Source: Ostreococcus lucimarinus | Lineage: Eukaryota | Length of the DNA stretch: 64,000 nt | NCBI GenBank assembly: GCA_000092065.1 | Contig: CP000584.1 | Direction: 5' to 3' (one strand) | Part shown: positions 480 through 60,020 of the stretch, in pieces | Layout of the letters: the number at the start of each line of letters is the position of its first letter | Position numbering within the stretch: position 1 is the first letter of the stretch | Made by a program: the position numbers and the translations under genes | Notes under the pieces: model-generated | The model's input: the letters and a program-made list of their open reading frames with translations, nothing else | Told to the model about the DNA's origin: nothing | The model's database searches: none

Positions 480-765
480 GTACGCCTCGTTCGCCTCGAC
501 GCGCCGACGCGACGCGCGTCGCGCGCCGACGCGCGCGCGCCGTCGCGAACGTCGACGGCGCAGCCCTAACCCCGAAGGACCGGCGGCGACGCGCGCGGAC
601 CGCGCGACGCGCGCGGACGCGCGCGATGGCCGCCGCGACGCGCGCGCGCGATGGGATAAAATACGCACGACGCATTCGCGGCGCGTCGGGCGACCGACGC
701 GTCGCGCGGAGACGCGACGACGGGAATCCGACGACTGACCCCGCACCACGATGTCGCGCGCGCAG

Positions 766-861
766 CCGACGTCCGTTCGCCCGACCGCGGCGAAGCGCAC
801 GTCCGTCGTCCTCGCGTCGGCGAAGACGGATGCGATCATCGAAGAGATGAAGACGCTCACG
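766..861 (+). CDS. rpl12: L7/L12 exon 2 (…KTDAIIEEMKTLT); acceptor CAG at 763-765, donor GTACGT at 862
   Basis: Matches the L7/L12 N-terminal dimerisation helix. Branch motif ACTGAC at 734-739 lies 26 nt upstream of the acceptor. Confidence 0.7.
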
Positions 862-1079
862 GTACGTGCGGCGCGCGCGATCGCGCGAGGACGCGGCGTG
901 GGAGGCGCGATGATGATGACGCGACGCGCGGACGACCCTACGCGATAAGGGTCTGGGGAAACCCTGAAAACGGAGCTCGCGCGGACGCTCGGGAAGGCGC
1001 GTGGAACGCGGGAAAGATGGCGCGATGCGACGCGGAACGAAGACTGACGATAAAATCGTGATCGTTCTCTCGCGCGTAG

Positions 1080-1418
1080 CTCCTTGAAGCGTCCGAGCTC
1101 GTCGCTCAAATCGAAGAAGTGTTCGGCGTCGACGCCTCCGCTCCGGCGGGCGGCATGATGATGGCCGCCGGCCCGGCTGCCGGTGGCGAAGCCGCCGAAG
1201 AAAAGACCGAGTTCGACCTTGTCATTGACAACGTTGACGCCGATAAGCGCATCGCGATCATTAAGGTTGTGCGTGGCCTCACCGACTTGGGCTTGAAGGA
1301 AGCGAAGGATGCCGTCACCAACGTGCCGTTCACCATCCTCGCGGGCAAGACGAAGGGTGAAGTCGAAGAAGCCAAGAAGGCGCTCGAAGAAGGCGGTGCC
1401 AAGTGCTCCATCAAGTAA
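1080..1418 (+). CDS. rpl12: L7/L12 exon 3 ([18 protein letters not shown]…[40 protein letters not shown]…[14 protein letters not shown])
   Basis: Near-identical motifs to E. coli L7/L12 ([26 protein letters not shown]). Acceptor TAG at 1077-1079 with ACTGAC at 1043-1048. Confidence 0.85.
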
Positions 1419-1564
1419 ATTCGTTGATATCAGCATGCCTCTAATTCTTTCGGTAGGAAGAGGAGCCGCGTAGATTCTGCGATATAGTCGATAGGAGAAG
1501 GAATGGCCCTTTTGCAAAACACATAACACATATTTCTTGATGATTTTACTACGCCGCGCTAAAG

Positions 1565-1978
1565 CTAATTCGCACCGCCGTCGACCTCGTCCTCGAGCTC
1601 GTATCTCAACTCCTCGATTGCGTCGTTGATTTCCCCAAACGCGCGCTCGAGGGTCTGCGTCGCCTCGCCGACGGCGTTCGAGTACTCCTCCTCCGTCGGC
1701 TCGGGACCATCCTTCGCGCACGCGCATCCGATCGCACACGCCGCCGGATCGCAATCCTCCGTGCGCGCCCATGACGGTTTCAAATTCATAGTCGTCTCCG
1801 CCGCCGCGCGTTCGCCGCCTCGTTGCCACGACCACGCCTCTCTTGCCGCGGCTCTTCGCAGCACTTGCAGCGCCGCCGTCATCTCCAATCGCACGCGTTC
1901 GTTCTGTTGAATCACGCGCACGAGCATCGCCGCTGACGTGCGATCGAGTCGTTTCAATCCCTCTTCTATGCCTAAAAT
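1565..1978 (-). CDS. Hypothetical conserved protein, exon 2 of 2 (ILGIEEGLKRLDRTSAAMLVRVIQQNERVRLEMTAALQ…EEYSNAVGEATQTLERAFGEINDAIEELRYELEDEVDGGAN)
   Basis: Non-repetitive ORF. Joined to the upstream exon through a 131-bp intron (donor GTGCGG is the reverse complement of 2104-2109, acceptor CAG the reverse complement of 1979-1981). Confidence 0.45.
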   Translation of the reverse strand: MLGIEEGLKRLDRTSAAMLVRVIQQNERVRLEMTAALQVLRRAAAREAWSWQRGGERAAAETTMNLKPSWARTEDCDPAACAIGCACAKDGPEPTEEEYSNAVGEATQTLERAFGEINDAIEELRYELEDEVDGGAN

Positions 1979-2109
1979 CTGCATCAACGAACGAGCGCTC
2001 GCGCGGTCATCGTCAGTCGCTCGAGTCGAGTCGCGCCGCGGCGACGCCGGCGCCGTCCCGCTCGCGCCGCGGGGCGAGGTGACCTCCCAGTCGCGCGCGT
2101 GCGCCGCAC

Positions 2110-2355
2110 CTTTTCGCTGTAACCCCGCATGTCGTCCGTCGTGCGCTTGGTTTCGAGCACGAACGCGTCCTCGGACGTCGTCCCGGCGAGCATCGACGCG
2201 TACGCGCCGTTCCACCGCTCGTAGCTCGAGCTCCTCGCGCGTTGCTGCTCGAAGAAAGACTCCAGCAGCGCGCGCGCCGAACCCGAGGCGGGCTCAATCG
2301 GGGCGGAGAACACGCGCCCGGTGGCGGTCATCGGCGACGCGGCGTGCGTCGACAT
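2110..2355 (-). CDS. Hypothetical protein exon 1 (MSTHAASPMTATGRVFSAPIEPASGSARALLESFFEQQRARSSSYERWNGAYASMLAGTTSEDAFVLETKRTTDDMRGYSEK); alternative ATG at 2424
   Basis: ATG on the reverse complement of 2353-2355. The frame is lost downstream unless the intron is spliced. Confidence 0.4.
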
Positions 2356-2496
2356 GACGGAGGCGCGCGCGTGTGTGGGGGCTCGGACGGCTTTGCGAGC
2401 GAGGAGCGAGCGAGTCAATAACATTTCAAAACCTTTTAAACTCCTTATCTGTACACCGTCATATCGTGCATATCATGCACGTATCGATCATATTAT

Positions 2497-3126
2497 TTAC
2501 TTCTTCACGCGCTTGCTGCACGTCGTGCCCGCCTCCTTGCATTTGGAACACGCGCTACGACCGCCGGCGGGGACCGCAAAGTGACCGGCCTCGTGCGTCT
2601 CGAGCACCGTGCGCAACTCGATGACGTCCTTGTGCGCACAGTCGTAGTAAATGAACCCACTGCCTTCCTTTTGTAACCACGCCACCTCGAGGGGGCACTT
2701 CGCGTTCGACTGTCGCACTTTCGTCACCTCGCCGTACCACGTCTCGTTCCCTTCGCCGCGAACCTCGACCTCCATCCCGACCGCGAAGTCCGACGTCTTC
2801 AACGGATCGTTCGCGCTTCGCTTCGGTTTCACCGTTTTCTTCGCCTTGACCTTCTTCGCCTTCGCCTTCGCCTTCGCCTTCGCCTTCGTCTTCGTCTTCG
2901 TCGTCGCCGTCGCCTTCGTCGTCGCCTTCGCCGTCTTCTTCTTCGTCCTTTCCACCGGCGTCGCCGGCGCGCTGCCCGTGATCGCCGTCAACTGCGCCGC
3001 GATCTTCGCGATCTCCGCCCTCCTCGCCGCCGTCTCGACCTCGCGCCGCGCCTCCGCCTCCTCGTCGCGTCGCGTCGCGCTCGCGAGCATCCGTCGCAAC
3101 GTCTCCAATTTCGCCTCGTCCGCCAT
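2497..3126 (-). CDS. Lys/Ala-rich nuclear protein with a C-terminal Tudor/Agenet-like barrel and a CxxC…C zinc ribbon (MADEAKLETLRR…KAKAKAKAKKVKAKK…FAVGMEVEVRGEGNETWYGEVTKV…)
   Basis: ATG is the reverse complement of 3124-3126. The (GCCTTC)n repeat at 2861-2900 encodes KAKAKA. The barrel-like motif is only weakly recognised. Confidence 0.55.
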   Translation of the reverse strand: MADEAKLETLRRMLASATRRDEEAEARREVETAARRAEIAKIAAQLTAITGSAPATPVERTKKKTAKATTKATATTKTKTKAKAKAKAKAKKVKAKKTVKPKRSANDPLKTSDFAVGMEVEVRGEGNETWYGEVTKVRQSNAKCPLEVAWLQKEGSGFIYYDCAHKDVIELRTVLETHEAGHFAVPAGGRSACSKCKEAGTTCSKRVKK

Positions 3127-3256
3127 CGTCGCGTCGTTCGCGCGCGCGCGCGCGCGAGATCGACGACGACGCGAGGTCGTCGTCGCGCGCGTCGTCGCCG
3201 CGTCGTCGACCGCGTCGTCGCCCGCGCGCGCGTCGAGTCGCGACGGGCGCCGCGCG

Positions 3257-4885
3257 ATGCCGTCGCGCCGCACGATGCCGCGCGCGGCGCCGTCGTCGTC
3301 GTCGAGCGCGTCGTCGTCGAGCGACGATGGCGACGACGACGGCGTCGACGACACGCTGGCCGCGATGTCCGACGACGCGATCAACGCGCGCGTCGCGCCG
3401 TCGTTTTACGCGCTGACGCGAAGCATCGACCGCGAGGACCGACGCGCGTTTCATCGCGTGCACTCGATCGCGCGCGACGCCGCGTTCGTGGAGGCGCAGG
3501 GCGAGCGGTTTTTGCGCGATTCGACGCGCGCGGCGTTCGCGAACGCGCGCGCGGGAGCGTGGTACGCGGGGGGGGGGAGGTTCGCGTACGAGACGTGCTA
3601 CTTTAAGAGCACCGACGGACACAATAATAACTGGACGATGTCGGCGACGAGGTTGAATCGACGCGTGGCGATGGCGTGCGCGGCGGGGAGGGGAGGGATG
3701 ATCGTGGACGCGACGCGGAGCGCGGTGAAACGGTTTCCGGATGCGCTGTCGAAGACGGTGCCGATTTGGTGCGACGCGTTGAACAGGGCGTGCGCGAGGG
3801 CGAAGCGGGACGCGGGAGCGGCGGACGCGGACGATCGCGCGTGGTTCGAGGGACCGCATTTGCCGGAGTGGGTGGCGGAACACGAGCGGAACAGCATACG
3901 CGCGCTCGTGCCGGAGTTTGAGGCGAGTTTGAAGTCTACGGGATGGGACGTCGGCGAGCTCGCGGCGATTTTGGAAAAGCCGTTTCGATGCGTGTGGGTG
4001 AGTCGGGGCGAAGACGGCGCCGAACTCTCGCTCGAGTCGCTCGCCGAGGCGGACTTTACTCCGCTTATACTCGTCACGGCGAGCGCGCCGCTGCATTGGC
4101 GCGGTGAGCGGCGGGTCGGGGTGAACGGGCACAGTTTCGCGTACGTTCCGGGAGCCGCGGACGACGAGGAGAGTTGGTCGCGTGGACTCACGGCTGACAT
4201 GTTTCACGAACACCGCGATGCTTTGCTCCACGCTTCTGAGCGCGACATTGACAACATCATCGCGCGCATCGTCGACGGTCGAATCGGGAAGCCGCGCGAG
4301 TTGGATCCTCGGTCTCGACTCGCGCCGCGAGGGTGTGCGCCGATGGACAGCCGCGCAGCGGAGGAGGCGAATCGTTCGAACGGTGCGATTTGCGCCGGCG
4401 GCATGCGAGAGCTTTCGCCAGAATGCGGCATCGGTCGATGCTCGATCGCGTCGTTCGCCGTGTACGATCGCGCTGACATGGAAAAACTCGCGGACGCATT
4501 TCTTCACGTCGGGGAAACCGTCGTGGATCCGAGCAAGGCGTGCTCGACTGCGTTTCTGCACGTTCCAGCGAGAAAAGCGAAAGTGAGCCGAACAGATCTC
4601 ATGAAAGCACTGCCTCGATGCATCGACTTCGCTCGTCGGACGTTCGAAACGCCAGGCGCACGTCTGTGCGTCACGTGCGACGACGGCGTCGACCACTCTG
4701 TCGCCGTCGCCGTGGCGCTTTGCATCGCCATGGGACCGTCGCCGTGTTCAAACGCGGACTTAGACAAAGACGACGTGCGCAAACAACTAGCGGCGGTATC
4801 GAAAACCCATCCCGACGCCAGACCGACGCGCGCGTCGCTCAAACAAGTGTACAATTTCTTTCTTCATAGCGAGGTAGCCGATTAG
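3257..4885 (+). CDS. RIT1: tRNA A64-2'-O-ribosylphosphate transferase (Rit1 family)
   Basis: N-domain motifs SFYALTRSI and ANARAGAWY match Rit1 SIYNRLRSI and ANERCGSWY. The C-terminal DUSP-like segment CVTCDDGVDHSVAVAVALCI matches too. First ATG at 3257, with alternatives at 3275 and 3365. Confidence 0.7.
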   Translation: MPSRRTMPRAAPSSSSSASSSSDDGDDDGVDDTLAAMSDDAINARVAPSFYALTRSIDREDRRAFHRVHSIARDAAFVEAQGERFLRDSTRAAFANARAGAWYAGGGRFAYETCYFKSTDGHNNNWTMSATRLNRRVAMACAAGRGGMIVDATRSAVKRFPDALSKTVPIWCDALNRACARAKRDAGAADADDRAWFEGPHLPEWVAEHERNSIRALVPEFEASLKSTGWDVGELAAILEKPFRCVWVSRGEDGAELSLESLAEADFTPLILVTASAPLHWRGERRVGVNGHSFAYVPGAADDEESWSRGLTADMFHEHRDALLHASERDIDNIIARIVDGRIGKPRELDPRSRLAPRGCAPMDSRAAEEANRSNGAICAGGMRELSPECGIGRCSIASFAVYDRADMEKLADAFLHVGETVVDPSKACSTAFLHVPARKAKVSRTDLMKALPRCIDFARRTFETPGARLCVTCDDGVDHSVAVAVALCIAMGPSPCSNADLDKDDVRKQLAAVSKTHPDARPTRASLKQVYNFFLHSEVAD

Positions 4886-4940
4886 CGAGTAGCGAGGATT
4901 AGTTTAGCTAAAATCTATTGCAACGACACGAGCGAGGTCT

Positions 4941-5558
4941 CTAAACGCACAGTCTGTACGTGACGTACCGCCCCGCGGTCTCACTCGGCCTGATGATGCG
5001 CACGACTTGTCCGCGACGCATTCCGTAATACCGCGCGATCGGATCGTGCATCTGAATTCGTGGCAACTGCGTATCCTTCACCTTGTACCGATCCAGCAGC
5101 GTCCTCTTCTGATCGTCGCTCAGCAAAATATGTTCCGGCACCAACACGTGATCGATGATGTTCACCAACAACTCCGTCTCTTGGAACTGTTCGATGTAAA
5201 ACTTTTGCGTCTGACACTCCAGCAACGACTGCTTCGCGAACGGCGTCAGCGACGCCTGCACCACGATGATCGCTCGAAACACATTTTCATCCTTCATGCG
5301 CTTCGCCAGATCCTTAATCGTCTTCACACCAACCTTTTCCTCGTCCGGGAAGAACACGAAGATATTTTCCGAGGGATCGTCGCGTTTCGGCGCCAGGATC
5401 GTCAGGCTCTCTCGCTTTGGCTCTTCGCCGAAATCCTCCGTGAACGAATCGATATCTCTCTCGAGCTCTTTCGCGCTCACGAGGTATCCACGCGCTGCGA
5501 GCATTTTGTGAATCGTCTTGCGCACGCGGAACAACCGCGTTCGCTTATCGTTGCTCAT
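4941..5558 (-). CDS. RPB5: DNA-directed RNA polymerases I/II/III subunit RPABC1 (RPB5), 205 aa, single exon
   Basis: Full-length collinear match to the RPB5 family (…FFPDEEKVGVKTIK…HVLVPEH…DPIARYYG…GQVVRIIRPSETAG). ATG and TAG both verified. Confidence 0.9.
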   Translation of the reverse strand: MSNDKRTRLFRVRKTIHKMLAARGYLVSAKELERDIDSFTEDFGEEPKRESLTILAPKRDDPSENIFVFFPDEEKVGVKTIKDLAKRMKDENVFRAIIVVQASLTPFAKQSLLECQTQKFYIEQFQETELLVNIIDHVLVPEHILLSDDQKRTLLDRYKVKDTQLPRIQMHDPIARYYGMRRGQVVRIIRPSETAGRYVTYRLCV

Positions 5559-5818
5559 CGTCGCGCGCGTTTAGGTCGTTCAAAGTTTGCAAATCGCCGA
5601 TGGAGATCCCTGACGGCGGATCGAAATCGTCGACGTGCGCGCGCGCTCGGGATGGCGAGCGCGTGTGACGGCGACGGGACGCGTCGACGTGCGTTCGTGC
5701 GTGCGCGCGCGAGAGTGCGGGCGACGCGAGGCGCGATGTGGGGACGCGGCGTCGCGTTTTCAGTTCGGCGGCTCGAGCGCGGGTTTAGGCGGCATGGAAG
5801 CTTAGCCGACGCGACGCG

Positions 5819-9563: not shown

Positions 9564-9604
9564 GTAATAAAATCTACGCGTCTCTTACAAAGACTTCTAT
9601 AAAA

Positions 9605-10696
9605 CTAACTAGCGCGCGACTCGCCGCCCTGCGCGTAGGCGCGGTCGTGCGGACAACTCGGGATGGGCAGGGGCAGGAAAGGGAACGGCGCAACCGAGGT
9701 TTCACTCAGCGCCGGTCCCAAGGCGCGCGATCTGAACTGCTTCAATCTCTCTCGTTCGGGCGACCAATCGTACGCCGCCGCGAACGGCACGCAGTGCCAC
9801 GGGAAATTGGCGCTGGCTTGCCTCAAAGACTCGTACGCGTCCACGGTGTGATCGCGAGGCACTCGGTGCAAACACGCTAGAGCTTGAAACGCGGGCAAGT
9901 ACAGCAGAGAGCCGAAGAACATGCGCCGAGCGGCTGGAAACGACGGCGCCGCGTAAAACGCCGCCGCCGCGGCGACGAGCGGCGCGCCGAGCGCGAGCGT
10001 CTCGTACGCGAACGGCGACGTCGTCACCCCCATCGCGCACGCTAACACGCCGAGTGGGAGCAGTGCCAACGAGTTTCTCACCGCCACGCCCGCGACGCGA
10101 CGTCCCGTTTTGTCAAACATTGGATGCGACAACATGCGATACCCCCCGTTGACGTAGTCGTCCTTCCCCATGTACGCCAACGCCATAAAATGCGGCATCT
10201 GCCACAAATACAGCGCCGACGCCAACACGAACGCCCCTGGATCCAACGTCCCGAGCTCGTTCGCGGCCGCCCAACCCATGAGCGGGGGAATCGCCCCCAC
10301 GACCGCCCCCACCCACGTGTTCAGAAAGTGCACCCGCTTGAGCGCCGTGTACGCCCCCGCGTACAGCGCGATGTTCCCCGCCCCCAGCGCCGTCGTCGTC
10401 TCGTTCGTCGCGATCGCTAAAACACCCACCCCACTCACCGCGCACGCGCCCGCGAACGCCATCGCGACCCCGGCGCCGCACCTTCCGCTCGGCAACGGCC
10501 GACCCGCCGTGCGTCGCATCGTCCCGTCCGGCGCCCGCTCCACCACCTGATTCAGCGCGTTCGCGCTCGCGCTGCACAGCATCGTCCCCGCGCACGTCGC
10601 CGCTAATTTTCCCGCGTCCATGCTCGTCGGCGAGCCGAGCACGAACCCCGCCGCCGCCGTGCTCACGACGAACGCGCTCAGGCGAAACTTGCTCAA
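9605..10696 (-). CDS. COX10: Protoheme IX farnesyltransferase (heme O synthase, COX10), 5' end unresolved
   Basis: KFRLSAFVV…, NIALYAGAYT and the diagnostic WQMPHFMALA motif. The track start at 10696 is a TTG and the frame stays open upstream with no ATG, so the N-terminus (mitochondrial presequence) is not defined. Confidence 0.8.
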   Translation of the reverse strand: MSKFRLSAFVVSTAAAGFVLGSPTSMDAGKLAATCAGTMLCSASANALNQVVERAPDGTMRRTAGRPLPSGRCGAGVAMAFAGACAVSGVGVLAIATNETTTALGAGNIALYAGAYTALKRVHFLNTWVGAVVGAIPPLMGWAAANELGTLDPGAFVLASALYLWQMPHFMALAYMGKDDYVNGGYRMLSHPMFDKTGRRVAGVAVRNSLALLPLGVLACAMGVTTSPFAYETLALGAPLVAAAAAFYAAPSFPAARRMFFGSLLYLPAFQALACLHRVPRDHTVDAYESLRQASANFPWHCVPFAAAYDWSPERERLKQFRSRALGPALSETSVAPFPFLPLPIPSCPHDRAYAQGGESRAS

Positions 10697-10774
10697 ATCG
10701 CGCGCCGTCTCCAGCAGCGCGCGCGCCGTGCGCGGCGTCGTCCACGTCGGCGCGAGCGTCGACGCGCGCGTCGA

Positions 10775-10809
<35 letters not shown>

Positions 10810-10884
10810 CGCTCGACGCGAACGCGCGCGGCGCGTCGAGCGCGCGCCGCGCCGAGCGCGAGCGCGCGCGCGCGCGCGGCGCGC

Positions 10885-12438
10885 ATGACGACGCGACGAC
10901 GAGTGCGACACTCGGCGACGCGCGCGCGACTCGACATGGCGCTCGCGGCGCGCGCGACGACGACGCGCGGCGACGCGGGACGCGCGGTGACGCGACGACG
11001 ACGCGCGTCCATCGCGCGCGCGCGCGAGACGACGCGCGCGAGCGACGCGCGCGACGGCGGCGCGACGGCGGGGACGATGCCGACGGGGACGAAGGTGGCG
11101 CTCGACGACGCGCGCGCGGCGTGCGTCGCGCTCGCGCTCGAGGAGGCGGACGCGGTCGGGAAGATCACGCTCACGGGACCGGGGCGAGGGACGGCGGCGG
11201 AGGCGCATCGAAGGGTGGAGTTTCGATGGGTGACGATTCGGGGGCGGACGGCGCTGCAGCGGACGCGGTACGACGAACGACAGGCGTTCACGAGTAATCA
11301 CGCGATCGAGGGCGAAGGAGGGCTCGTTTCGAAGAGCGCGAGCGGGGATGAGGACGCGATCGGGGCGAGGGAGGCGCTGGAGGAGGCGCTGAGGGCGGGA
11401 TATAAACATTGGCGCGTCGAACACGCGCGCGGCGGTTACAACGTGACGGCGAACGCGAAGAAGGCTCGGGCGACGATTTCTAGGGACAACGCGAGTAAGG
11501 GGACGCTGATAGACGGTAGTGCGAGAACGCAGACGATCGTCGTCGGCCCACAAGGGCACGACCGCGAGAAGTCGAGGTTACTGACGGGGGAGGACCCGTT
11601 TTTGCGATACGTCGGCGTCGTCGCCAAGGATGGAACCATCAAGGCGAGCAAGCGGGACAAGTACAAGCAAGTGGAGGAGTTTCTGAAGATTTTGAACGTT
11701 GCTTACGACACCGCGACGTCGGCGGGACACATGAAGGGCGGCGATGAGACTCGCCCGCTTCGTGTGTGCGATTTAGGATGCGGGAACGCGTATCTCACGT
11801 TTGGGGCGTACTCGCTCTTGAGCTCGAAGAGACGCGTGCCTACAAACGTAGTGGGCGTCGACGTGAAGCGCCAAGCGCGCGAACATAACTCGCGGGTGGC
11901 CAAAGAGCTAGGTTGGGATGCGTCGATGAGATTCATTGAAGGCACGATCGCCGACGCCGACGTGACTTTCGTAGACGGTTCAGAGGAGGACGCGTTCACC
12001 GACGTAGTGCTCGCTTTGCACGCGTGCGACACGGCGACGGATGAGTCCATCGTTCGAACGGTGCGTTGGTGCGCTCCACTGGCGCTCATCGCGCCGTGCT
12101 GTCATCACGATCTCCAAGTGCGTTTGAAAAGCGCACCTCATGTTGCTTTCCCGCCGATGGCGAGGCACGGCATCCTCAGCGAACGTCTCGGTGACGTTCT
12201 CACGGACGCATTCAGAGCTCACATTTTGCGACTGCTGGGATATCGCGTCGACGTCATGGAATTCGTAGGAGGGGAGCACACGCCTCGAAATACTCTCATT
12301 CGAGCGATCCGCACGAACGCGTCGGCGTCGAAGGCGGCGTGGGAAGAGTATGATCACATGTGTTCAACGTGGGGCGTCACGCCTTTTCTCGCGGACGCCC
12401 TCGCCGAGGAGTTGGCGGTGGCGCGTCGCGCGATCTGA
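10885..12438 (+). CDS. SAM-dependent methyltransferase (Methyltransf_32-like; LGCGNAYLTF…ALHACDTATD)
   Basis: Class-I methyltransferase motif I and the ALHAC(G/D)xATD signature. First ATG at 10885 (alternative 10936). Confidence 0.6.
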   Translation: MTTRRRVRHSATRARLDMALAARATTTRGDAGRAVTRRRRASIARARETTRASDARDGGATAGTMPTGTKVALDDARAACVALALEEADAVGKITLTGPGRGTAAEAHRRVEFRWVTIRGRTALQRTRYDERQAFTSNHAIEGEGGLVSKSASGDEDAIGAREALEEALRAGYKHWRVEHARGGYNVTANAKKARATISRDNASKGTLIDGSARTQTIVVGPQGHDREKSRLLTGEDPFLRYVGVVAKDGTIKASKRDKYKQVEEFLKILNVAYDTATSAGHMKGGDETRPLRVCDLGCGNAYLTFGAYSLLSSKRRVPTNVVGVDVKRQAREHNSRVAKELGWDASMRFIEGTIADADVTFVDGSEEDAFTDVVLALHACDTATDESIVRTVRWCAPLALIAPCCHHDLQVRLKSAPHVAFPPMARHGILSERLGDVLTDAFRAHILRLLGYRVDVMEFVGGEHTPRNTLIRAIRTNASASKAAWEEYDHMCSTWGVTPFLADALAEELAVARRAI

Positions 12439-12479
12439 GTGTAAATCTTGTTGTAAATTTACCTTCGCTAGATTAGTAC

Positions 12480-15395: not shown

Positions 15396-15439
15396 TTGTA
15401 AAAGCGCGCTTCTTTCAATATTTCAACTTACATACGCGA

Positions 15440-18908: not shown

Positions 18909-19559
18909 CTATGTCCTATTTTGGCGCTGCCCAGTGACTTCCGCGGGCAAAGGTCTATTGAAGCCGCCGACGCGATTCATGTATTGCCTGGCTTGCCGCT
19001 TCGTCTTCTTTTGCACCGCCGACGCGTTGGCGAACTCATCCTCCACGTGCTTGCCTTGCGTCGTGCCGAATCCTCCGAATCCCATCATGCGCATCATCGC
19101 GGACTCATCGTCTTCGTCCTCACCCGCCGGCGGCGGCGGCGGCGGCGGCACGTCGACCGCTTTCCCGCCGCCCGCCGCGGGCGGCGGCGGCGGCACGTCT
19201 CTCCGTCGCTTACGGTCGTCGCGCGCCGGCGATCGCGATCGCGACCGCGACCTCGACCTCGACCGCGAATCACGTCGTCGCTTCCTTCGATCGTCATCGC
19301 GCGAATCCTCGCGCGCGCCGCGTCCGCGACCGTACCCCCCGTACCGCCGCGGCGGCGACCTCGACCTCGACCTCGACCTCGACCTCGACCTCGACCTCGA
19401 CCTCGACCTCGCTCGCCGCGCGCCGTACCCTCCGTACCGCCGTCCCGGCGACCTCGACCTTGACCTCGCCCGCGCGCCCCCCCTCCATCGCCCGTCGCGT
19501 CCATCGTCGCGTCCGTACCCTCGCCCGTCTCGTCCGTCGTCTCGTCCGAACCGCCCCAT
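18909..19559 (-). CDS. SNRNP27: U4/U6.U5 tri-snRNP 27 kDa protein (SNRNP27): N-terminal RS domain and conserved C-terminal domain
   Basis: The C-terminus MMRMMGFGGFGTTQGKHV…KKTKRQARQYMNRVGGFNRPL matches the SNRNP27 (DUF1777) signature. The RS repeats are encoded by the (GACCTC)n microsatellite. Confidence 0.8.
   Translation of the reverse strand: MGRFGRDDGRDGRGYGRDDGRDGRWRGGARARSRSRSPGRRYGGYGARRARSRSRSRSRSRSRSRSRSPPRRYGGYGRGRGAREDSRDDDRRKRRRDSRSRSRSRSRSRSPARDDRKRRRDVPPPPPAAGGGKAVDVPPPPPPPAGEDEDDESAMMRMMGFGGFGTTQGKHVEDEFANASAVQKKTKRQARQYMNRVGGFNRPLPAEVTGQRQNRT
19357..19410. repeat. (GACCTC)9 coding microsatellite, encodes (RS)n on the minus strand
   Basis: Perfect hexamer repeats inside the SNRNP27 RS domain. 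A shorter copy lies at 19243-19262. Confidence 0.9.
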
Positions 19560-19819
19560 CGTCTACGCGTCCCGCGTCCCCGCCCCCTTATCCAGCACCG
19601 CGCGCAGTTTCGCCTCCTCCGCGCGCGCGCTCTCGAAGTGCGTCACCCACGACCTCGGACACGCCCGCTCGTACGCCTCGCGCGCGCGTCGACACGTCGC
19701 CGTCGCCGTCGCCGTCGCCGCCGAATCCGAATCCGAATCCGTCGTCGCCGCGGCGTCCGCGCACCGGTGATACGCGTCGCGCGCGTCGCGGCACGCGACC
19801 CGCGCCGCGCGTATGGATC

Positions 19820-19821
<2 letters not shown>

Positions 19822-19857
<36 letters not shown>
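19822..19857. repeat. (GTC)12 trinucleotide microsatellite, intergenic
   Basis: Perfect repeat located between the SNRNP27 start and the AP2 gene. Confidence 0.9.
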
Positions 19858-19859
<2 letters not shown>

Positions 19860-19958
19860 GCGCCGCGCCGCGCCGTCGTCTGTCGAATCGTCGAAAATCG
19901 CGTCGAATCGCGTCGACGCGCGCGTCGACGCCCGACTGTTTGCGCATACGGCGAGGAT

Positions 19959-20081
19959 CGAGAGGGACACATTCCCGAGTCGCCATCGGTCGATGGCGCC
20001 GAGAGGGACACATTCGTGAGTCGCCATCGGTCGATGGCGCCGAGAGGGACGCATTCCCGAGTCGCCATCGGTCGATCGGTC
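19959..20081. promoter_or_regulatory. Three tandem copies of a 41-bp unit (CGAGAGGGACACATTCCCGAGTCGCCATCGGTCGATGGCGC), each with an 8-9 bp-stem palindrome GCGCCATCG-GT-CGATGGCGC; candidate cis-regulatory module about 250-370 bp upstream of the AP2/ERF ATG
   Basis: Copies at 19959-19999, 20000-20040 and 20041 to about 20081. Copy 2 differs at 3 nt and copy 3 degenerates into GTCGATCGG repeats. Confidence 0.5.
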
Positions 20082-20332
20082 GATCGGCGTCCCAGATTCT
20101 CGGGACGCTTTTTCGTCGGCACGTTTCGCTCCGACGCCGCGCGTCGACGGCGCGACTCCGCCGCGTGCGCGAGCGACGCGGCGCGACGCGACGCGAGCGC
20201 ATCGGGACGACCGCGAGGGACGACCGCGCGGCGCGCGCGACGCTCTCGGACGCGACGGCGAGCGCGCGCGCGTCGACGCGAACGCGCGAAAAAGCGCAAA
20301 AGTCCGAAGCGATAGGCGACGCGACGCGCGCG

Positions 20333-20422: not shown

Positions 20423-20675
20423 GTGCGAGCGCGAACGCGGGAGAGACGAGGACGAGAGGGAGGAGACGGGGGGGAATTGTGGGAACGCGGGACGACGCGG
20501 GACGACGCGCGGGACGAGGACGCGAGGCGAACGAGACGCGAGCGAACGGCAGAGGACGACGAGGCGAGGACGCGCGATCGGGACGGTAGTGATCGCGAGG
20601 TCGAGCGCGCGAGAGAGAGAGAGGGCGTCGAACGCGGGCGTGGAGGTGACTGACGAGGCGCGACGACGCACGCAG

Positions 20676-22301: not shown

Positions 22302-22655
22302 CTGTGTCGCGTGCGTCGCGCGGTCGCGTCATCCGTCAGTCGCGCGTTCGCGTTCGCCTTCGTCTCCCCCTCGGTCTCTTCCCTCGCCCCAATCTCGCGA
22401 TCGACCGTTCGCGACCCAGCATCGACCCCCCCCCGAGGTCGCGCGATCGATCGATCGCCGCGTCGCCGTCCTTTCACCGATCGCCGCGTCGCGCGCGCGT
22501 CCTCGCGGCCGATCGATCGCGCGCGCGCGCCGATCGCGCGCGTCGCGCGCGCGCGTCGATCGCGCGTCGCGCGCGCCGCCCCGCGCCCCTCGCGGCCTCG
22601 ATCGCGGTCGCGGTCGCGACGGCTTCAGGATAAAACCAAGCGGCGCCCTGCGCAC

Positions 22656-22983: not shown

Positions 22984-23237
22984 GTGCGCGTCGAATCGAA
23001 CGCGTCGCGAGCGGCACCGGCGACGGCGCGCGCGGCGACGGCGACGGCGCGAACGCGCGACGCGATGGACGGGGCGACGATGGAAACCCTAAGGACGATC
23101 GCAGAGAGAACGAACGCGCGCGGGAGGGCGGCGTCGAGCGCGCGATCGGACGCGCGAACGGACGGGGAGGCGCGGGTGATTTTGAACGCGCGCGATGACT
23201 GACGACGACGACGATGCGGTGTTCGCGCGTGCGGTAG

Positions 23238-23369: not shown

Positions 23370-23508
23370 GTACGTTTTAAGGCGAGCGAAGCGCGGGAAC
23401 GCGGTCGGTGCGCGAGAGGGCGCGACGGTGCGACCGAGGCTCGATCGGTGGGGTTTGAGACGCGCGAACGCGCGACTGACGTCGGGTTGATGAATCGTTC
23501 GGAAACAG

Positions 23509-31323: not shown

Positions 31324-31326
31324 ATG
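31324..31326 (+). CDS. NDUFA1: NDUFA1 (MWFE) exon 1: start codon only (ATG|GTGCGT)
   Basis: The conserved ORF has no in-frame ATG; the track 'M' at 31515 is a GTG. An ATG is immediately followed by the local donor consensus GTGCGT. ACTGAC at 31472-31477 and acceptor CGACAG at 31506-31511 join it in frame. Confidence 0.4.
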
Positions 31327-31511
31327 GTGCGTCCACCGCCCGCTCGCCTCGAACGCGTCGAGATCGCGCGCGCATCGCGTCCGCGCGCGTCGCGCGCGCA
31401 TCGCGCGCGCGCGCGCTCGTTCTCGCGCGCCGACGTTCCACGCGCGGGTTTACCCCAACCCGACATCGACGACTGACGCTCGCGCACGTCGCGATCGCGC
31501 GCGCTCGACAG

Positions 31512-43703: not shown

Positions 43704-43753
<50 letters not shown>

Positions 43754-49142: not shown

Positions 49143-49288
49143 CTCGTCCGTCGTCCCTCGTCGCCGGCGTCGCGGTGTGAGCGCGCGTCGCGGTGTGCGC
49201 GCACCGCGATTCGAATCGATCGCGCGACAGCTCGAGTTTGAATTCGCGTTCGCGTCGTCGCGAGTGCGACGCGCGCGAGGGACGACGG

Positions 49289-50974
49289 ATGCGCGTCTCG
49301 ACGTCGACGCGCGTCTCGATCGCGGTCGCGTCGACGCCGCGTCGCGCGCGTCGGCGACGACGCGCGAACGCGACGCGACGACGCGCGTTCGACGACGACG
49401 ACGACGACGACGACGGACTCGATGGACTCGTGCGACGGGCGTGCGCGCGAATCGGACGCGGCGACGAGGAAGCGAAAGAGATGACGGCGCGATTGCGGGC
49501 GAATTGGTTCGAGACGGCGGAGGACGTGCGAGGGATGGGGCCGGAGGACGCGCGCGCGGCGGGAATGCCGGCGAGGCTGTACGCGAGCGTGCGGGCGACG
49601 CTGGACGAGGACGAAGAAGACGACGTAGAGGCGAGAAATGGGGAAACGAAGCGCGAGGAGAGCGAAAGTGGGTGGATCGGGGGGGCGCTGCCGGGCGCGG
49701 GAACGCGCGCGCCGACGGTGACGCGAGAGGGAGGGACGGCGCTCGCCGACGTGCGCGTGACGCAACGGCGACGATTGAAACCGTTTTCTCTGCGCGGCGA
49801 AGAGGTGAGCGCGGAGTTGGAGGAAGAGTTGAATACGCTGGTGAGAGATTTGACGTCGAGACGCGTCGGTGGTGGGCGCGCGCCCGTGCGAGAGCGCACG
49901 GCGATGAATCACGTCGCCGTGGCGAAGCAATTCATGGGATGGTTGTGCCGAGAGTCAGAGCACGCGAGCGAGTTTGCGACTCTGAGCGTCGATGGACGCG
50001 TGGTGTTGCGTCCGGGCGTGTCGTTGCGCGACGCGTTTCCGAAGCGCGAATCCGTAGGCGCGAAGTACGCGATAGAATACGTTCAGTGGCTCAGCGACGA
50101 GCGTCGCATCAAATCGACGACGGAGGATTTTCAGCTGCGAAGTCTCGTCGCCTTGGCGAAGTGGGTGCACGCGTTCGTCGAAGACGACGGTATAGCGCCG
50201 CCGTGCGTGCAAGAGCTCGTTCGAGTGCAGCGATCGGCGCGCGATCGCGCGAAAAACGCCCCACACGCCGCGGACGACGACCGAAAATGGCTCGAATGGG
50301 ATCAGTACTTGGCGCTCGTCGAGCATCTCAAACTCGAGTGCGCGCCGCTGGATTGCAACGGCAAAGAGCGCTCTGAGCGCGAAATCGCGATGAGCGTGCA
50401 GCGCTATTTATTGTTCGCCATCTTGGCGTGCATTCCCGATCGCCAGCGAACGTTGCGCGAGCTGCAGTTGAACAAGACGCTCTTTCGCGACGCCTCCACC
50501 GGCGCGTGGATGGTGCGTCACGGCAGCGACGATTACAAAACGGGCGGCGCCTACGGCGAGCGACCCGCGCTCGTGATCGATTCTCGCGTCTATCCAGCGC
50601 TCGAGAGTTGGCTCTCCACCCACCGAGCCGCGTTATCGCCGTCCCACGACTTTGTTTTCACCCGCCCCAACGGCACGCCCTGGACGGTGAGCGAATTGTC
50701 GCGAACGTTTTCCCGCGCCGCCCTTCGCGTCACCGGCCAAAAGACCAATCCCCACTTGATTCGCGACATGATCGTCACCCACGTCCGCTCTCGCGGCATC
50801 GCCAGCGACGCCGAGCTCGAGGCCTTGGCTCGTTTCATGGGTCACTCCAGCGCCATGCAAAAGTCCACCTACGACCGCCGCACGACGCAAGAAAAAGTCA
50901 ACCCGGCGTTGTCGTTGATGGCCAACGTCAACGCCGCCGCGCCGCCGTCGCGACCGGCGTCCGCGCCGTCCTAG
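49289..50974 (+). CDS. Tyrosine-recombinase (phage-integrase fold; Crypton-like) domain protein
   Basis: The C-terminal 300 aa carries the R…K…HxxR…H…Y catalytic tetrad pattern in the right order (…PDRQRTLRELQL…HGSDDYKTGG…NPHLIRDMIVTHVRS…LARFMGHSSAMQKSTYDRRT…). An N-terminal SAM-like core-binding region follows a poly-Asp (GAC)n tract. First ATG at 49289 (alternative 49481); the track start is a GTG. Confidence 0.55.
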   Translation: MRVSTSTRVSIAVASTPRRARRRRRANATRRRAFDDDDDDDDGLDGLVRRACARIGRGDEEAKEMTARLRANWFETAEDVRGMGPEDARAAGMPARLYASVRATLDEDEEDDVEARNGETKREESESGWIGGALPGAGTRAPTVTREGGTALADVRVTQRRRLKPFSLRGEEVSAELEEELNTLVRDLTSRRVGGGRAPVRERTAMNHVAVAKQFMGWLCRESEHASEFATLSVDGRVVLRPGVSLRDAFPKRESVGAKYAIEYVQWLSDERRIKSTTEDFQLRSLVALAKWVHAFVEDDGIAPPCVQELVRVQRSARDRAKNAPHAADDDRKWLEWDQYLALVEHLKLECAPLDCNGKERSEREIAMSVQRYLLFAILACIPDRQRTLRELQLNKTLFRDASTGAWMVRHGSDDYKTGGAYGERPALVIDSRVYPALESWLSTHRAALSPSHDFVFTRPNGTPWTVSELSRTFSRAALRVTGQKTNPHLIRDMIVTHVRSRGIASDAELEALARFMGHSSAMQKSTYDRRTTQEKVNPALSLMANVNAAAPPSRPASAPS

Positions 50975-52503: not shown

Positions 52504-52775
52504 GCTCGCGTTCGCGTACACAACGAGCGAGTGCGTTCCATAGGCGTCGCGCGCGCGCCATCCGAAACCGTCAAACCGTCGACGCGCTCGCTCGACGTTT
52601 GATTTTGTCCGTCTCCGACGACGCAATAACACATTACCGACAAAACATATTATCCAGGCGACTCCGACGGCGCGTCGCGTCTTCGCCTTTCGCGACCGTC
52701 GACGCGAGCGCGAAACGACGTCCCGACGGGACGACTGGCGACCCCGCGCGGCGGTTACCGCACATCGCGCCGACG

Positions 52776-53897: not shown

Positions 53898-54016
53898 TTG
53901 ATGGTTCTTCGTCGTCATTGTTATTGTGTCGTAGTTTTCTAATACAAAAATTCGCGTGCGCGCGCATATTAACAAAAATTACGAATCCAGTCGTCGTCTA
54001 CATTGCTCGCTTAACA

Positions 54017-55942: not shown

Positions 55943-57120
55943 GTCGGCGCGCGCGACGCGCGAAGACGCGTCGCGGTGTGCGACTCGGCGGCGTCCGCGC
56001 GGCGGGCGACGCGAACGCGAACGCGAGACGCGCGCGAACGTCGAGGTCGATATCCCGAATCGTCGATGTGAATGAATTACACGAATCACACAAAAAGTTA
56101 GTTCGTTTCCCAGCGCTCGCTCGTCGCGATGACGCGTCGAAATCGCCCGTCGTCGCGTCACCGCGCGTTGGGATCGAGCGGAAACGACGCGCGCGCCGCG
56201 TCGCTCGGAAACGGAAACGGAAACGCGACGCCGACGCCGACGCCCGCGATCGCGCGCATCGCGTCGATCGTCATCGTCGACGACGACGACGACGACGCGC
56301 GGTGCGCGTGACGCGCACCGCGACGCCCGCCGCCGCCGCGTCCCGTCGACGCCGGCTCGCCTCCGTCTCGCGCCGGCGACGACGCGTCTAGAACTTCGTC
56401 GTCCGTCGCCTCCTCCGTCGTCATCTCCGCGTCCCACGAAGCGAGTCGTCCCGTCATCGTCGACGTCGACGTCGTCGGCGTCTCCGAGTCGTTCGCTTCC
56501 TCGCGCTCGCGCTCGCGCTCGTCCCGCCTCGCGTCTCGCTTGGCCAGTCGTCCGTCGCGCACGCCGACGGCTTCGACGTACGCGTCTCGTCTTCGCTTGC
56601 GCCCGCGCGCCGCGCGCGCGGCGTCACCGTCGTCGTCCATGGAATCCACGTCGCACGCGGCGCGCGCGCGCGCGTTTTCGAACGAACGCGCGAACCACCG
56701 GTCGGTGATTGATTGTATTGATTTTTGAACGCGATGCGCTCGAGCTCGACGCCGCGACGACGCGACGACGCGACGACGCGACGCGCGACTACCGACGACG
56801 CGACGACGACGATCGCGACCGATCGGATCGATCGCGCGTCTCGCGGTGTCGCGCGCGCGGCGTCGAACGCGCGTCTTCCATCGATCGATTCGACGCCCGC
56901 GTCTTCTCGGCGACCGACCGAACGCGACCGACGACGCGATCGCGACGAACGGCGCGTTCGACCGACGTCGAGATCGAAATCGAACGATCGCACCGCGATC
57001 GATCGGTGCGATCGAACCTCGACGCGTCGATCGAACGATCGTCGAATCGCGCGATCGACCCATCTGGATCGCCGTCGGCGCCGACGTCACGCCCGGCGGC
57101 ACAGCGCGACGGACGACGCC

Positions 57121-57331
57121 ATGAGCGACTGGGCCGACGACAGCGGCGATTTACCACCCCTGAGCGCGGGACTGCCGCCGCCACCGACGACGACGACGAC
57201 GACGACGATACCGAAACCGTCGACGTCGGTGCCGGCGCCGCAGGTCGCGTCGCCGCAGAAATCGGGATACGTCCCGCCGCATCTGCGGAATCGGCACGCG
57301 GCGGCGGGCGACGGCGGGTCGCGAGGATTCG
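57121..57331 (+). CDS. DDX3: DEAD-box helicase DDX3/Ded1, exon 1 (MSDWADDSGDLPP…GYVPPHLRNR…GFG); donor GTGCGTCG at 57332
   Basis: Contains the conserved eIF4E-binding Y(I/V)PPHLR motif of DDX3/Ded1. Confidence 0.7.
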
Positions 57332-57579
57332 GTGCGTCGACGACGACGGCGCGACGCGCGCGAACGACGGCGACGGCGACGACGAGAGGGAATTTTTAAT
57401 CGATCGATCGCGCGCGCGCGATGACGCGCGAACGCGTCGCGCGAGAGAGGGGACGCACGCGATCGCGATCTCGACCGCCCCGCACGATGGCGACGGGCGA
57501 TAACATTGAGGCGTAACCCTGGACGAGCGCCGAGGCGGGCGACTGACGACGAACGACGCGCGCGGTTCCGATCGAGCAG

Positions 57580-59193
57580 GCGGTGACGATAGACGAGGCG
57601 ATGGATGGGATACCGGACGCGACCGCGGCGGCGGTGGATGGGGCGGCGGCGGCGGCGGTGGATGGGGCGGCGGCGGCGGCGGCGGACGGTTTTCGCGCGG
57701 GGAAGACTACGGCGGGACGTCGTTCGGGCGGCGAGACGATCGCGGGGGAGGAGGCGGAGGATGGGACACCGGACGGTCGCGATTCCGCAGAGAAGATAAC
57801 CCGTTCGCGCAAATGGAAGAGGAAGAAGCGGCGGCGGCGAGAAACGATCCTGACTCCGAGGCGACGAAGATGTTTACCGGCGAAAACACCGGTTTGGACT
57901 TTGACCTGTACGACGACATTCCCGTGGAGACGAGCGGACGCGACGTGCCGGAGCCCATCACTTCGTTCGTCGACCTCGACCTCGGGGCGGCCGTGAACAC
58001 GAACATCAAGAGATGCAAGTTTAAGAATCCGACGCCGGTGCAAAAGTACGCCATTCCAGCTTCGCTGGCGGGAAGAGATTTAATGGCGTGCGCGCAGACG
58101 GGTTCCGGTAAAACGGCGGCGTTTTGCTTTCCCATCATCGCCGGTATCTTGAAGCGCGGTCTTCAAGGCGGTCATATGAACCGCAAGACGTATCCTCTCG
58201 CGCTCGTGCTTTCGCCGACGCGCGAATTGGCGAGCCAGATTCACGAAGAATCGCGGAAGTTCGCGTACCAAACCGGCGTCGCCTCGTGCGTCATCTACGG
58301 TGGCGCTCCGGCGGTGGAACAATTCCGCGCCATGGAACGCGGGTGCGACATTCTCGTCGCCACGCCGGGTCGTTTGATCGATCTCATCGATCGCGCTAAG
58401 ATCTCGTTGAGCAGAGTTCAATATCTCGCGCTCGACGAGGCGGATCGCATGTTGGATATGGGTTTCGAGCCGCAAATTCGACAAATCGTCGACGAGCGCG
58501 ACATGCCGCGATGTGGCGAGCGTCAAACGATGTTGTTCTCCGCAACGTTCCCGAGGGAAATCCAGCGAATGGCTTCGGACTTCTTGGACGATTACGTCTT
58601 TCTCACGGTCGGTCGCGTCGGCTCTTCGCACGCGTTGATCACGCAATCCGTCGAGCGCGTGACTTCGTACCACGAAAAGAGCAATATGCTTCTCGATTTG
58701 GTCGAAGCCGTGCCGGGTTTGACTTTGGTTTTCGTCGAAACGAAGCGAGGTGCGGACCAGCTCGAGGATTTCTTGTACCAAAACGGTAAGCCCGCGACGA
58801 GCATCCACGGCGATCGCACGCAGCAGGAGCGCGAGGCGGCGTTGAAATCCTTCCGAGCGGGTAAGACGCCCATCCTCGTCGCCACGGACGTCGCGGCGAG
58901 AGGTTTGGATATTCCTCACGTCACCCACGTCATCAACTTTGACTTGCCATCGGATATCGACGACTACACGCACCGCATCGGTCGTACCGGGCGCGCGGGG
59001 AAGAAGGGTCGGGCGACGGCGCTGTTTTTAGAATCCAAAGACGGCCAAATGGCTCGCCCGTTGACGGAGCTCATGAGCGAGGCGAACCAGGAAGTGCCGA
59101 CGTGGTTGACGCAAATCTCTGGCCATTCCTTCGGCGGTGGTGGACGTCGTCGCGGTGGTGGTGGCGGGAATAGATTCGGCGGTCGCGACTACC

Positions 59194-59240
<47 letters not shown>

Positions 59241-59255
59241 TGGGGCCGCGAGTAA
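57580..59255 (+). CDS. DDX3: DDX3/Ded1 exon 2: RGG/Gly-Trp-rich linker, full DEAD-box core (Q-motif, [23 protein letters not shown]) and a Gly-rich tail
   Basis: Acceptor GAGCAG at 57574-57579, chosen because the branch motif ACTGAC at 57542-57547 lies 32 nt upstream. An alternative AG at 57510 would put the branch point downstream of it. Further small introns are not excluded. Confidence 0.65.
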
Positions 59256-59617
59256 ATCGACCCGCCTCGCGCGTTCGCGTTCCGAGTATGAAATCCTAGA
59301 TGTGTGCATCTGTTAGATGTTAGACATTCGTGTTGTGACTATTTTCTACACTATCCCACTACGCCATCACACGTCCCCTCGCGTCTCGGCCGCCGACAAA
59401 GACGACGAAGCCTCGACTCGACGAAAACGGTCCCGCGCCCGCCCCCCTCGCAAAAGATTCCTCTTCGGCACGCGTAGGAATAAAAAACCAAAATCACCCC
59501 GAAACCCCGTATACAACGTGAAACGAGTCGATGTACCGCGCACCCCATTTGTGCGACGGCGTCCCCCGCCTCGTCGTCGCGGCGTCGTCGTCGCGGCATC
59601 GCGCGACGCGTCGGACG

Positions 59618-59680
59618 ATGAAGTTCGGTCAGCTCTTCGCCGCGACGACGGCGTCGATGGCGCCGAACGTGCGAGAGCAG
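59618..59680 (+). CDS. SPX: SPX-domain protein, exon 1 (MKFGQLFAATTASMAPNVREQ); donor GTGCGCGAC
   Basis: MKFG… is the invariant SPX N-terminus. Confidence 0.75.
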
Positions 59681-60020
59681 GTGCGCGACGCGAACGCGCG
59701 AGCGCCCGGAACGACGCGACGACGACCGCGCGAACGACGACCGCAAAACGGGGCGACGGGCGATGGCGCGGTAGAATATTCCCAGCGCGCGACCGTCGCG
59801 GAGGGGGGGGGAGGGCGCGCGTCGCGCGCGTCGCGCGCTCTAAAGAGAGACAAGAATGCGCGCGAAGGATGCGCGCGAGGACGCCGCGAATGGGGACGGT
59901 TCGCGCGCGATGGTGGGCGTCGAGCGCGCGAAGACGGCGAACGGAGGGCGGCGAGACGCGCGAACGACTCGAGGGCGTTGACTGACGGATTCACGCGATG
60001 CACGCGCGCGGGAAGCGTAG

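Follow-up and report, generated by a model that had tools for sequence, protein, structure and literature searches.

The 11 introns recognized in a 64,000-nucleotide stretch of Ostreococcus lucimarinus CCE9901 DNA (GenBank assembly GCA_000092065.1, contig CP000584.1; this whole stretch is referred to as the window) are, with a high degree of confidence, spliceosomal introns of the ordinary U2 type, as found in the main, intron-poor compartment of this nuclear genome, and are set apart by strict core signals: a GT[A/G]CG 5' splice site, an ACTGAC hexamer near the 3' end and a YAG acceptor. An earlier note on this DNA, made from the sequence alone, had described the architecture as uniform, and so it is in all ten of the introns that it named, each of which starts with GTACG or GTGCG, carries a single ACTGAC and ends in CAG or TAG. 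The same note gave the number of introns as 11 while listing ten; the eleventh, in a Tcp11-family gene, went unlisted and lies beyond the span covered there, which ended at position 60020. It departs from the donor rule (GTAGGC), which describes 10 of the 11 introns and is not absolute. The observation is real, statistically solid and was rightly interpreted, yet it is not new: a 2008 paper on this genome had described the architecture with its numbers and drawn the parallel to yeast, and whether U1 compensates for the atypical donor was taken up in 2022.

The window is G+C-rich (63.5%) and densely packed with genes. Its gene map was drawn from open reading frames (ORFs) and Pfam domains, the latter being chosen because codon-score segmentation was too noisy in such G+C-rich DNA, and holds about 40 genes, i.e., about 0.27 introns per gene. 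Window gene products are identical to RefSeq proteins of O. lucimarinus CCE9901, several in spliced form and others unspliced; Rpb5 (XP_001417617.1) and a kinase (XP_001417626.1) are among these identities. The base composition, the low intron density and the 930,724-bp length of the source record all fit the main compartment, i.e., the genome outside the low-GC, intron-dense half of chromosome 2.

Shared splice signals

All ACTGAC hexamers on both strands of the window were located, together with the nearest upstream GT[AG]CG and downstream AG. The hexamer is present in 11/11 introns and is single-copy in 10 of them. It is preceded by G in every intron and followed by G in all but one, giving GACTGACG in 10/11. 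Between the motif and the AG lie 19-32 nt, and the putative branch A stands 22-35 nt before the acceptor G, in line with the spacing claimed in the earlier note; the motif positions quoted there also hold, except for two that were off by one (20648 and 23197, which should read 20649 and 23198). The GTRCG donor (R at +3, C at +4, G at +5) opens 10/11 introns, the exception being that of the Tcp11 gene, and the exon-final base before the intron is usually G. Acceptors are CAG in eight introns and TAG in three, with a purine (G or A) at position -4 throughout (11/11) and C at position -5 in just 5/11. No polypyrimidine tract was found in any of the 11, the pyrimidine fraction between the motif and the AG being 0.33-0.57. 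The interiors are G+C-rich (56-77%) and the lengths range from 117 to 354 nt. All 11 introns fall within the first ~75 codons of their genes, and four of them interrupt ribosomal-protein genes; such 5'-proximal introns and ribosomal-protein hosts are typical of intron-poor genomes.

Signals of other kinds are absent. A U12-type 5' site ([AG]TATCCTT) or branch sequence (TCCTTAAC, 10-15 nt from the 3' end) occurs in 0/11 introns. The yeast-type TACTAAC plays no part either, given that ACTAAC is found just three times in the window and is never the only branch motif of an intron. Furthermore, the ORF/Pfam map of about 40 genes contains no certain intron lacking ACTGAC.

As a word, ACTGAC is not in excess in the window (20 sites on both strands vs 18.4 +/- 4.2 in dinucleotide shuffles). 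Its distribution is another matter: 13 of the 20 sites lie in sense orientation within 2,525 nt of intron, where 0.14 would be expected from the rate elsewhere (Poisson P ~1e-21), and the remaining ones are in coding sequence, sense, or antisense to genes (+ strand, 6238, 6310, 11580 and 38344; - strand, 21350, 27869 and 37254). Likewise, GTRCG occurs 512 times on both strands and makes up 6.7% of the GT sites of the window, vs 10/11 of the intron starts (P ~2e-11). Complete GTRCG...ACTGAC...YAG triplets number 11, all of them in the introns accepted here (the upstream GTRCG of the Tcp11 triplet is not the true donor of that intron), whereas shuffled sequence gives 3.3 +/- 1.9. Avoidance of the hexamer in exons is not significant (53 kb of coding sequence in sense orientation hold one site, the median of its 180 anagrams being 6, rank 27/180), and its scarcity there can be put down to the embedded TGA. 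When the branch motif was relaxed to CTRAY and combined with GTRCG and YAG, dozens of matches within coding sequence were returned and discriminating power was lost. With the full hexamer, the practical intron-finding rule that the earlier note had proposed recovers every verifiable intron of the window.

Additionally, ACTGAC is retained in orthologous introns of three other lineages. In the introns of the AP2, orphan and eS17 genes elsewhere in Ostreococcus, the hexamer and the acceptor are kept while interiors and lengths change, and the 5' splice site is kept too wherever the compared stretch reaches it. Across these comparisons, no block other than ACTGAC is conserved between donor and acceptor.

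Introns with RNA-derived junctions

Splicing was assessed by looking for the exact 30-nt spliced junction in RNA-derived contigs, i.e., public assemblies of sequencing runs, including those of Logan (single contigs and related sequences are cited below by L and P numbers). This check against RNA, which had been suggested in the earlier note, returned exact junction 30-mers for 7/11 introns, namely the two of rpl12, that of REX1B, that of the orphan gene, the two of eS17 and that of the SPX gene. In addition, the spliced products of five genes (REX1B, orphan, eS17, NDUFA1 and SPX) are identical to NCBI RefSeq proteins, and Pfam domains run uninterrupted across the tested junctions. The motif had been used in part to call these introns in the first place, which raises the worry of circularity; because the RNA junctions of seven introns and the five RefSeq identities are independent of the motif, this worry is removed for most of them.

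The rpl12 gene, which encodes chloroplast ribosomal protein L7/L12, has two introns on the + strand. Intron 1 (480..765, 286 nt) opens with aag/GTACGCCT (the slash marks the splice site, with exon letters before it), carries gacgACTGACccc at 734-739 and ends in GCGCGCAG, and intron 2 (862..1079, 218 nt) opens with acg/GTACGTGC, carries gaagACTGACgat at 1043-1048 and ends in GCGCGTAG. Both junction 30-mers are present in L002 and L005. The spliced 169-aa product is a single ORF on a Logan contig, and the Pfam domain Ribosomal_L12_N (residues 45-94) is unbroken at the second junction, 57/58.

On the opposite strand, a DNA-repair gene of the REX1B family, called hypothetical in the earlier note, contains an intron of 131 nt (1979..2109, - strand) that opens with aag/GTGCGGCG, bears agcgACTGACgat at 2012-2017 on the + axis and ends in TGATGCAG. 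Its 211-aa spliced product equals XP_001417615.1, its junction 30-mer is found in L005, L006 and L007, and the REX1B Pfam domain (residues 22-115) is continuous over junction 74/75. In this intron a GAG located 15 nt past the branch A is passed over in favor of a YAG. An orphan gene of 82 aa, which has no family match, is interrupted by the longest intron (22302..22655, - strand, 354 nt); it opens with aag/GTGCGCAG, carries cgcgACTGACgga at 22335-22340 on the + axis and ends in CGACACAG. The spliced product is XP_001417623.1, the junction 30-mer is present in L008, L009 and L010, and in the relatives L016 and L017 the signals of this intron are kept while its interior has diverged.

The gene for the cytosolic ribosomal protein eS17 again has two introns on the + strand. 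The first (22984..23237, 254 nt), which follows codon 11, opens with aag/GTGCGCGT, carries gatgACTGACgac at 23198-23203 and ends in TGCGGTAG, whereas the second (23370..23508, 139 nt) opens with acg/GTACGTTT, carries cgcgACTGACgtc at 23475-23480 and ends in GGAAACAG. The spliced product is XP_001417372.1, both junction 30-mers are found in L003 and L004, and Pfam Ribosomal_S17e (positions 1-120) continues through both junctions. In L017, intron 2 retains GTACGT, ACTGAC and CAG, and intron 1 keeps ACTGAC and the CAG acceptor, the compared stretch beginning there downstream of the 5' splice site. Contigs L008 and L009 have their starts precisely at exon-intron boundaries of eS17.

The last intron of this group belongs to an SPX-domain gene (59681..60020, + strand, 340 nt) and follows codon 21. 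It opens with cag/GTGCGCGA, carries gttgACTGACgga at 59981-59986 and ends in AAGCGTAG, with an AAG 5 nt upstream of the acceptor being passed over. The spliced product is XP_001417386.1, and the junction 30-mer is found in five RNA-derived contigs (L011-L015). All five of these contigs begin independently 1-2 nt upstream of the ATG (59616-59618), which suggests either an extremely short 5' untranslated region or else a consistent assembly break.

Single RNA-derived contigs also span neighboring genes on opposite strands. REX1B and rpl12 share one such contig (L005, window 1-2854), eS17 and the kinase gene share another (L003, 22938-26036), and a third (L008, 20152-23369) bridges eS17, the orphan gene and AP2. 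In this compact genome, the transcripts of such opposite-strand neighbors therefore overlap or adjoin.

Introns supported by reading frame, annotation and conservation

In the NDUFA1/MWFE gene, the first coding exon is the ATG itself (31324-31326). The intron that follows directly (31327..31511, + strand, 185 nt) opens with atg/GTGCGTCC, carries gacgACTGACgct at 31472-31477 and ends in CTCGACAG. The earlier note had called this ATG-only exon with the help of the motif, and the call is borne out: the 65-aa spliced product is identical to XP_001417376.1, and Pfam MWFE positions 1-54 align with residues 2-54, i.e., from the junction on. In the frame of exon 2, the stretch ahead of the transmembrane helix contains no ATG. 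The search for RNA-derived contigs returned none for NDUFA1.

The first intron of the AP2/ERF transcription factor gene (20423..20675, + strand, 253 nt), placed after codon 30, opens with gag/GTGCGAGC, carries ggtgACTGACgag at 20649-20654 and ends in GCACGCAG. The downstream frame is open through the intron, and ORF logic therefore does not demand it. Its support is comparative: in the two Ostreococcus relatives L016 and L017 (82-85% protein identity), GAG/GTGCG, ACTGACGG, the CAG acceptor and the exon-1 peptide are kept, while the interior of the intron is entirely different in sequence and length. In strain P0271, a frameshifting indel falls within the intron, and a Micromonas transcript (P0286) encodes a similar short acidic N-terminus directly before the AP2 domain. 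On this comparative evidence the AP2 intron of the earlier note is accepted as real; the RNA-derived contigs yielded no spliced form of it. The AP2 ORFs of two related lineages (P0274 and P0275) read through the intron in frame. A homology search with the 75-aa AP2 N-terminus returned short AP2-domain proteins only and missed the species' own protein. No named RefSeq entry of O. lucimarinus could be linked to the AP2 product, whether spliced or unspliced.

In the gene for a DEAD-box helicase of the DDX3/Ded1 type, a phase-1 intron (57332..57579, + strand, 248 nt) opens with tcg/GTGCGTCG, carries ggcgACTGACgac at 57542-57547 and ends in TCGAGCAG. The helicase ORF matches DDX3X with E = 1e-158, and exon 1 (57121-57331) carries the family motif YVPPHLR, the eIF4E-binding motif of DDX3/Ded1. 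Since the frame of exon 1 differs from that of the helicase ORF, an intron is required here. An alternative GAG acceptor 3 nt upstream (57576) would also be in frame; because GAG and AAG are skipped for the next YAG in REX1B and SPX, the CAG is favored. The choice of the CAG acceptor made in the earlier note is thus plausible, judging from the reading frame, the family motif and this YAG preference; neither the annotation nor the RNA-derived contigs yielded a match to its exact junction. Neither spliced junction, that of AP2 or that of DDX3, turned up in JGI metagenome and metatranscriptome contigs, an uninformative result given that even DDX3 gave no match. Exact look-ups of alternative models of DDX3, AP2, Tcp11, COX10 and COX6B mostly found no entry in the searched collection.

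A stop-free intron in the Tcp11 gene

The intron of the Tcp11-family gene (61235..61351, + strand, 117 nt) was found via its branch motif, ORF finders reading straight through it. It opens with gag/GTAGGCTG and ends in AGCTGCAG, i.e., an off-consensus donor (GAG/GTAGGC) is paired with a CTGCAG acceptor. Within it, ACTGAC occurs three times (61289, 61310 and 61322; cluster 61289-61327), accompanied by one CTAAC and one CTGAC. These motifs lie partly in a 12-nt tandem repeat (61286-61333) made up of GTGACTAACGAC followed by GTGACTGACGAC twice, and the relative L021 lacks 22 nt of this repeat, which looks like a slippage-type expansion of the branch site.

In this strain the 117 nt keep the frame and contain no stop, and the segment is hence invisible to ORF analysis. 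In L021, whose protein is ~92% identical, the segment has accumulated indels of +1, +2, +2 and -22 nt; there, the exon-1 frame runs into a stop before the segment ends, and the ORF further downstream occupies a different frame. Nonetheless L021 keeps GAG/GTAGGCT, two copies of ACTGAC and CTGCAG/ATCGCT. In distant Tcp11 homologues, conservation begins exactly at the proposed exon 2. These comparisons argue that the segment is a real intron, one that keeps the branch motif and breaks the GT[A/G]CG rule. Neither the spliced nor the unspliced Tcp11 product matched a record in the searched collection.

Possible reading of the signals and alternative explanations

By analogy with other spliceosomal introns, ACTGAC would be the branch site and would contain the branch nucleotide. 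SF1/BBP would read ACUGAC first, after which the GUAGUA box of U2 snRNA would pair with it (A-U, C-G, U-A, G.U, C-G), leaving the second A bulged as the nucleophile. Yeast UACUAAC pairs in the same way, except that the position beside the branch A, a G.U wobble here, is an A-U pair there. Once the first step is complete, the catalytic center would take the first YAG lying at a permitted distance, and GAG and AAG would be skipped. These steps are those of established spliceosome biology, and strict signals are known to recur in lineages that lost most of their introns.

Several points weigh against this account of uniform, U2-type introns. The role of ACTGAC as a branch site rests on analogy and position, and the first and last positions of GACUGACG make no Watson-Crick pairs with the canonical U2 box. 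Direct RNA support covers seven of the 11 introns and does not extend to those of AP2, NDUFA1, DDX3 and Tcp11, and two RNA-derived contigs, L008 and L009, carry the AP2 intron unspliced. Moreover, COX10 and a COX6B-like gene lack an obvious in-frame start and could hide signal-free introns. As for the unspliced AP2 intron, L008 likewise contains unspliced eS17 intron 1, whose splicing is certain, so retention in these contigs says little; it was dropped as evidence against the AP2 intron. Antisense RNA or pre-mRNA may be the source of both contigs.

A different and rather improbable proposal combines two ideas that are judged jointly. According to the first, GACTGACG and GTGCG are read mainly by proteins of shifted specificity (SF1/BBP, U1C, U2AF-like) and not by snRNA pairing, an idea that draws on the unchanged sequence of published U1 candidates (see below) and on the imperfect pairing of GACUGACG with the canonical U2 box. 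According to the second, which is separate, stop-free in-frame introns are facultatively retained and give alternative proteins; the candidates are the Tcp11 intron, with its weak GTAGGC donor and triplicated branch motif, and the AP2 intron, which P0274 and P0275 read through in frame.

Alternatively, ACTGAC could be a protein-bound intronic element, an enhancer or other, with the true branch point elsewhere in the last 35 nt. The same imperfect match of GACUGACG to the U2 GUAGUA box would suit such an element, as would the report that no snRNA-based explanation was found for the 3' preferences (Irimia and Roy, PMC2483917). We nevertheless hold this to be very unlikely: the hexamer agrees with the universal branch consensus (CTRAY/yUnAy), 10/11 introns have just one copy of it, its distance is typical of branch points, and it is the only block conserved across lineages from the 5' site to the acceptor.

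There is next to no room for the idea that the uniformity is an artefact of ascertainment, introns having been defined by GT...ACTGAC...AG in G+C-rich DNA. It is true that GTRCG occurs 512 times and ACTGAC is in no overall excess, that shuffled sequence still gives 3.3 full triplets on average, and that the motif guided the earlier calls of the DDX3 acceptor, the AP2 intron and the NDUFA1 exon. Yet seven RNA-derived junctions and five RefSeq products are independent of the motif and already refute such circularity for seven to nine introns, the map of about 40 genes holds no certain motif-free intron, and ACTGAC is conserved in orthologous introns of other lineages. Equally hard to credit is a mobile intron family whose members inherited their motifs from a common source, although introner elements are on record from the sister genus Micromonas (PMC4540971), for the many short matches found in an all-against-all BLASTN of the 11 introns are at most ~70 nt long with 75-85% identity in many registers per pair, as expected of CG-rich low complexity, collinear homology is lacking, lengths vary from 117 to 354 nt, and orthologous introns elsewhere share three signals only. 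Ordinary U2-type introns with strict core signals thus remain the reading adopted here.

Relation to published introns of Ostreococcus and other lineages

The same genome was surveyed by Irimia and Roy (2008, PLoS Genet 4:e1000148, PMC2483917), who found ACTGAC in 87.2% and GACTGACG in 66.5% of introns confirmed by expressed sequence tags (ESTs) outside chromosome 2, ~13% of the EST-confirmed introns of this set being without the hexamer. An atypical 5' consensus, GTGCGTG, and a CGCAG-like 3' end with R at -4 were reported in the same study, as well as a branch-to-AG distance peaking at ~20-35 bp, and a parallel to intron-poor yeasts was drawn (PMC2483917). The signals of the window agree with this class throughout, with no difference of substance, and the yeast-like constrained branch signal proposed in the earlier note matches the published account of the non-chromosome-2 introns. 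What the window adds is an ATG-only first coding exon, a stop-free, in-frame intron that combines a GTAGGC donor with three branch motifs, and the skipping of GAG and AAG.

The low-GC half of chromosome 2 offers a contrast within the same organism and presumably with the same spliceosome. Introns there lack these signals (Irimia and Roy, PMC2483917; Lanier et al., PMC2367439): they are numerous, 40-65 bp long, with weak 5' sites (GTRNGT) and no ACTGAC, their commonest hexamer, CTGACG, being found in <5% (PMC2483917, PMC2367439). The introns of the window, by comparison, measure 117-354 nt in DNA of 63.5% G+C.

Among the other Mamiellales, Micromonas and Bathycoccus share a donor of the GTGCGY type, with C at +4 over most of the genome. 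In the U1 snRNA candidates from five Mamiellales genomes, the ACUUAC pairing region is reported to be of the standard form, and the C at +4 is therefore not compensated (bioRxiv 10.1101/2022.06.08.495308); the scope of that study is the 5' site and U1, not the branch motif or its spacing. An Rfam scan of the window returned no snRNA nor any other RNA family.

Saccharomyces and other hemiascomycetes are likewise intron-poor, with a near-invariant branch sequence (TACTAAC), strong 5' sites, introns at the 5' ends of genes and in ribosomal-protein genes, and a U1 of the standard kind although position +4 is a pyrimidine. In contrast to yeast, the Ostreococcus motif is ACTGAC, with G before the branch A, and is flanked by G on both sides; the donor is GTGCG instead of GTATGT, and the introns are G+C-rich. 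Since Ostreococcus is a green alga, the likeness to yeast is one of convergence and not of homology.

Consequences for annotation

What this analysis adds locally is the Tcp11 intron, backing for the AP2 intron from comparison with relatives, and the passing over of GAG and AAG acceptors. Its practical value lies in annotation, the rule supporting an AP2 intron that ORF logic does not demand and its branch motif having led to the Tcp11 intron. Prokaryote-style gene callers applied to marine metagenome contigs systematically mistranslate the loci of the window, and public protein clusters contain the resulting products, among them a 484-aa AP2 protein read through the intron, 63-aa NDUFA1 products started from GTG, and rpl12 products of 86-121 aa from exon 3 alone.

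Other features of the window

Two genes have ill-defined 5' ends. In COX10/heme O synthase (UbiA family; 9605-10696, - strand, within the region 9605-11164), 156 open codons upstream of the first transmembrane helix contain no ATG, GTG or TTG; a plausible ATG-started presequence lies in another frame, and no GTRCG or CTRAY splice-like signals are found on this strand. This could reflect an intron of atypical kind, a frameshift in the assembly or an unusual start. The COX6B-like CHCH gene (19566-19810, - strand, within the region 19566-20330) is conserved from 'IRAARxxCRxARDAYH' on, a stretch preceded by a poly-Thr (ACG) repeat with no obvious in-frame start, and L016 and L017 are equally unclear at this locus; here, an atypical intron or an assembly frameshift could be at work.

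In the divergent intergenic region between the COX6B-like and AP2 genes, a 41-nt tandem repeat (19959-20076) is present in 2.9 copies with 93% matches. Each unit holds the inverted repeat GCCATCG-GT-CGATGGC, and the repeat may be a promoter or a transcription-factor site.

In the region 2497-4885, the long Rit1 ORF (+ strand, 744 aa) overlaps a strongly coding-like ORF on the - strand (2497-3384). Rit1 domains start from residue 259, and the RefSeq numbering leaves room for one - strand gene in the overlap. The first part of the Rit1 ORF is probably spurious, G+C-rich DNA being prone to inflate ORFs. Further along, an ORF of 593 aa (49193-50974, + strand) shows a weak match to the catalytic domain of phage integrase (tyrosine recombinase) over residues 464-564, with 26.3 bits vs a cut-off of 27.1, and could be a Crypton-like or domesticated recombinase. 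Lastly, the window encodes the U4/U6.U5 tri-snRNP 27K protein (Pfam SNRNP27; 18909-19559, - strand), a gene that prokaryote-style calls split into two ORFs in L016 and L017.

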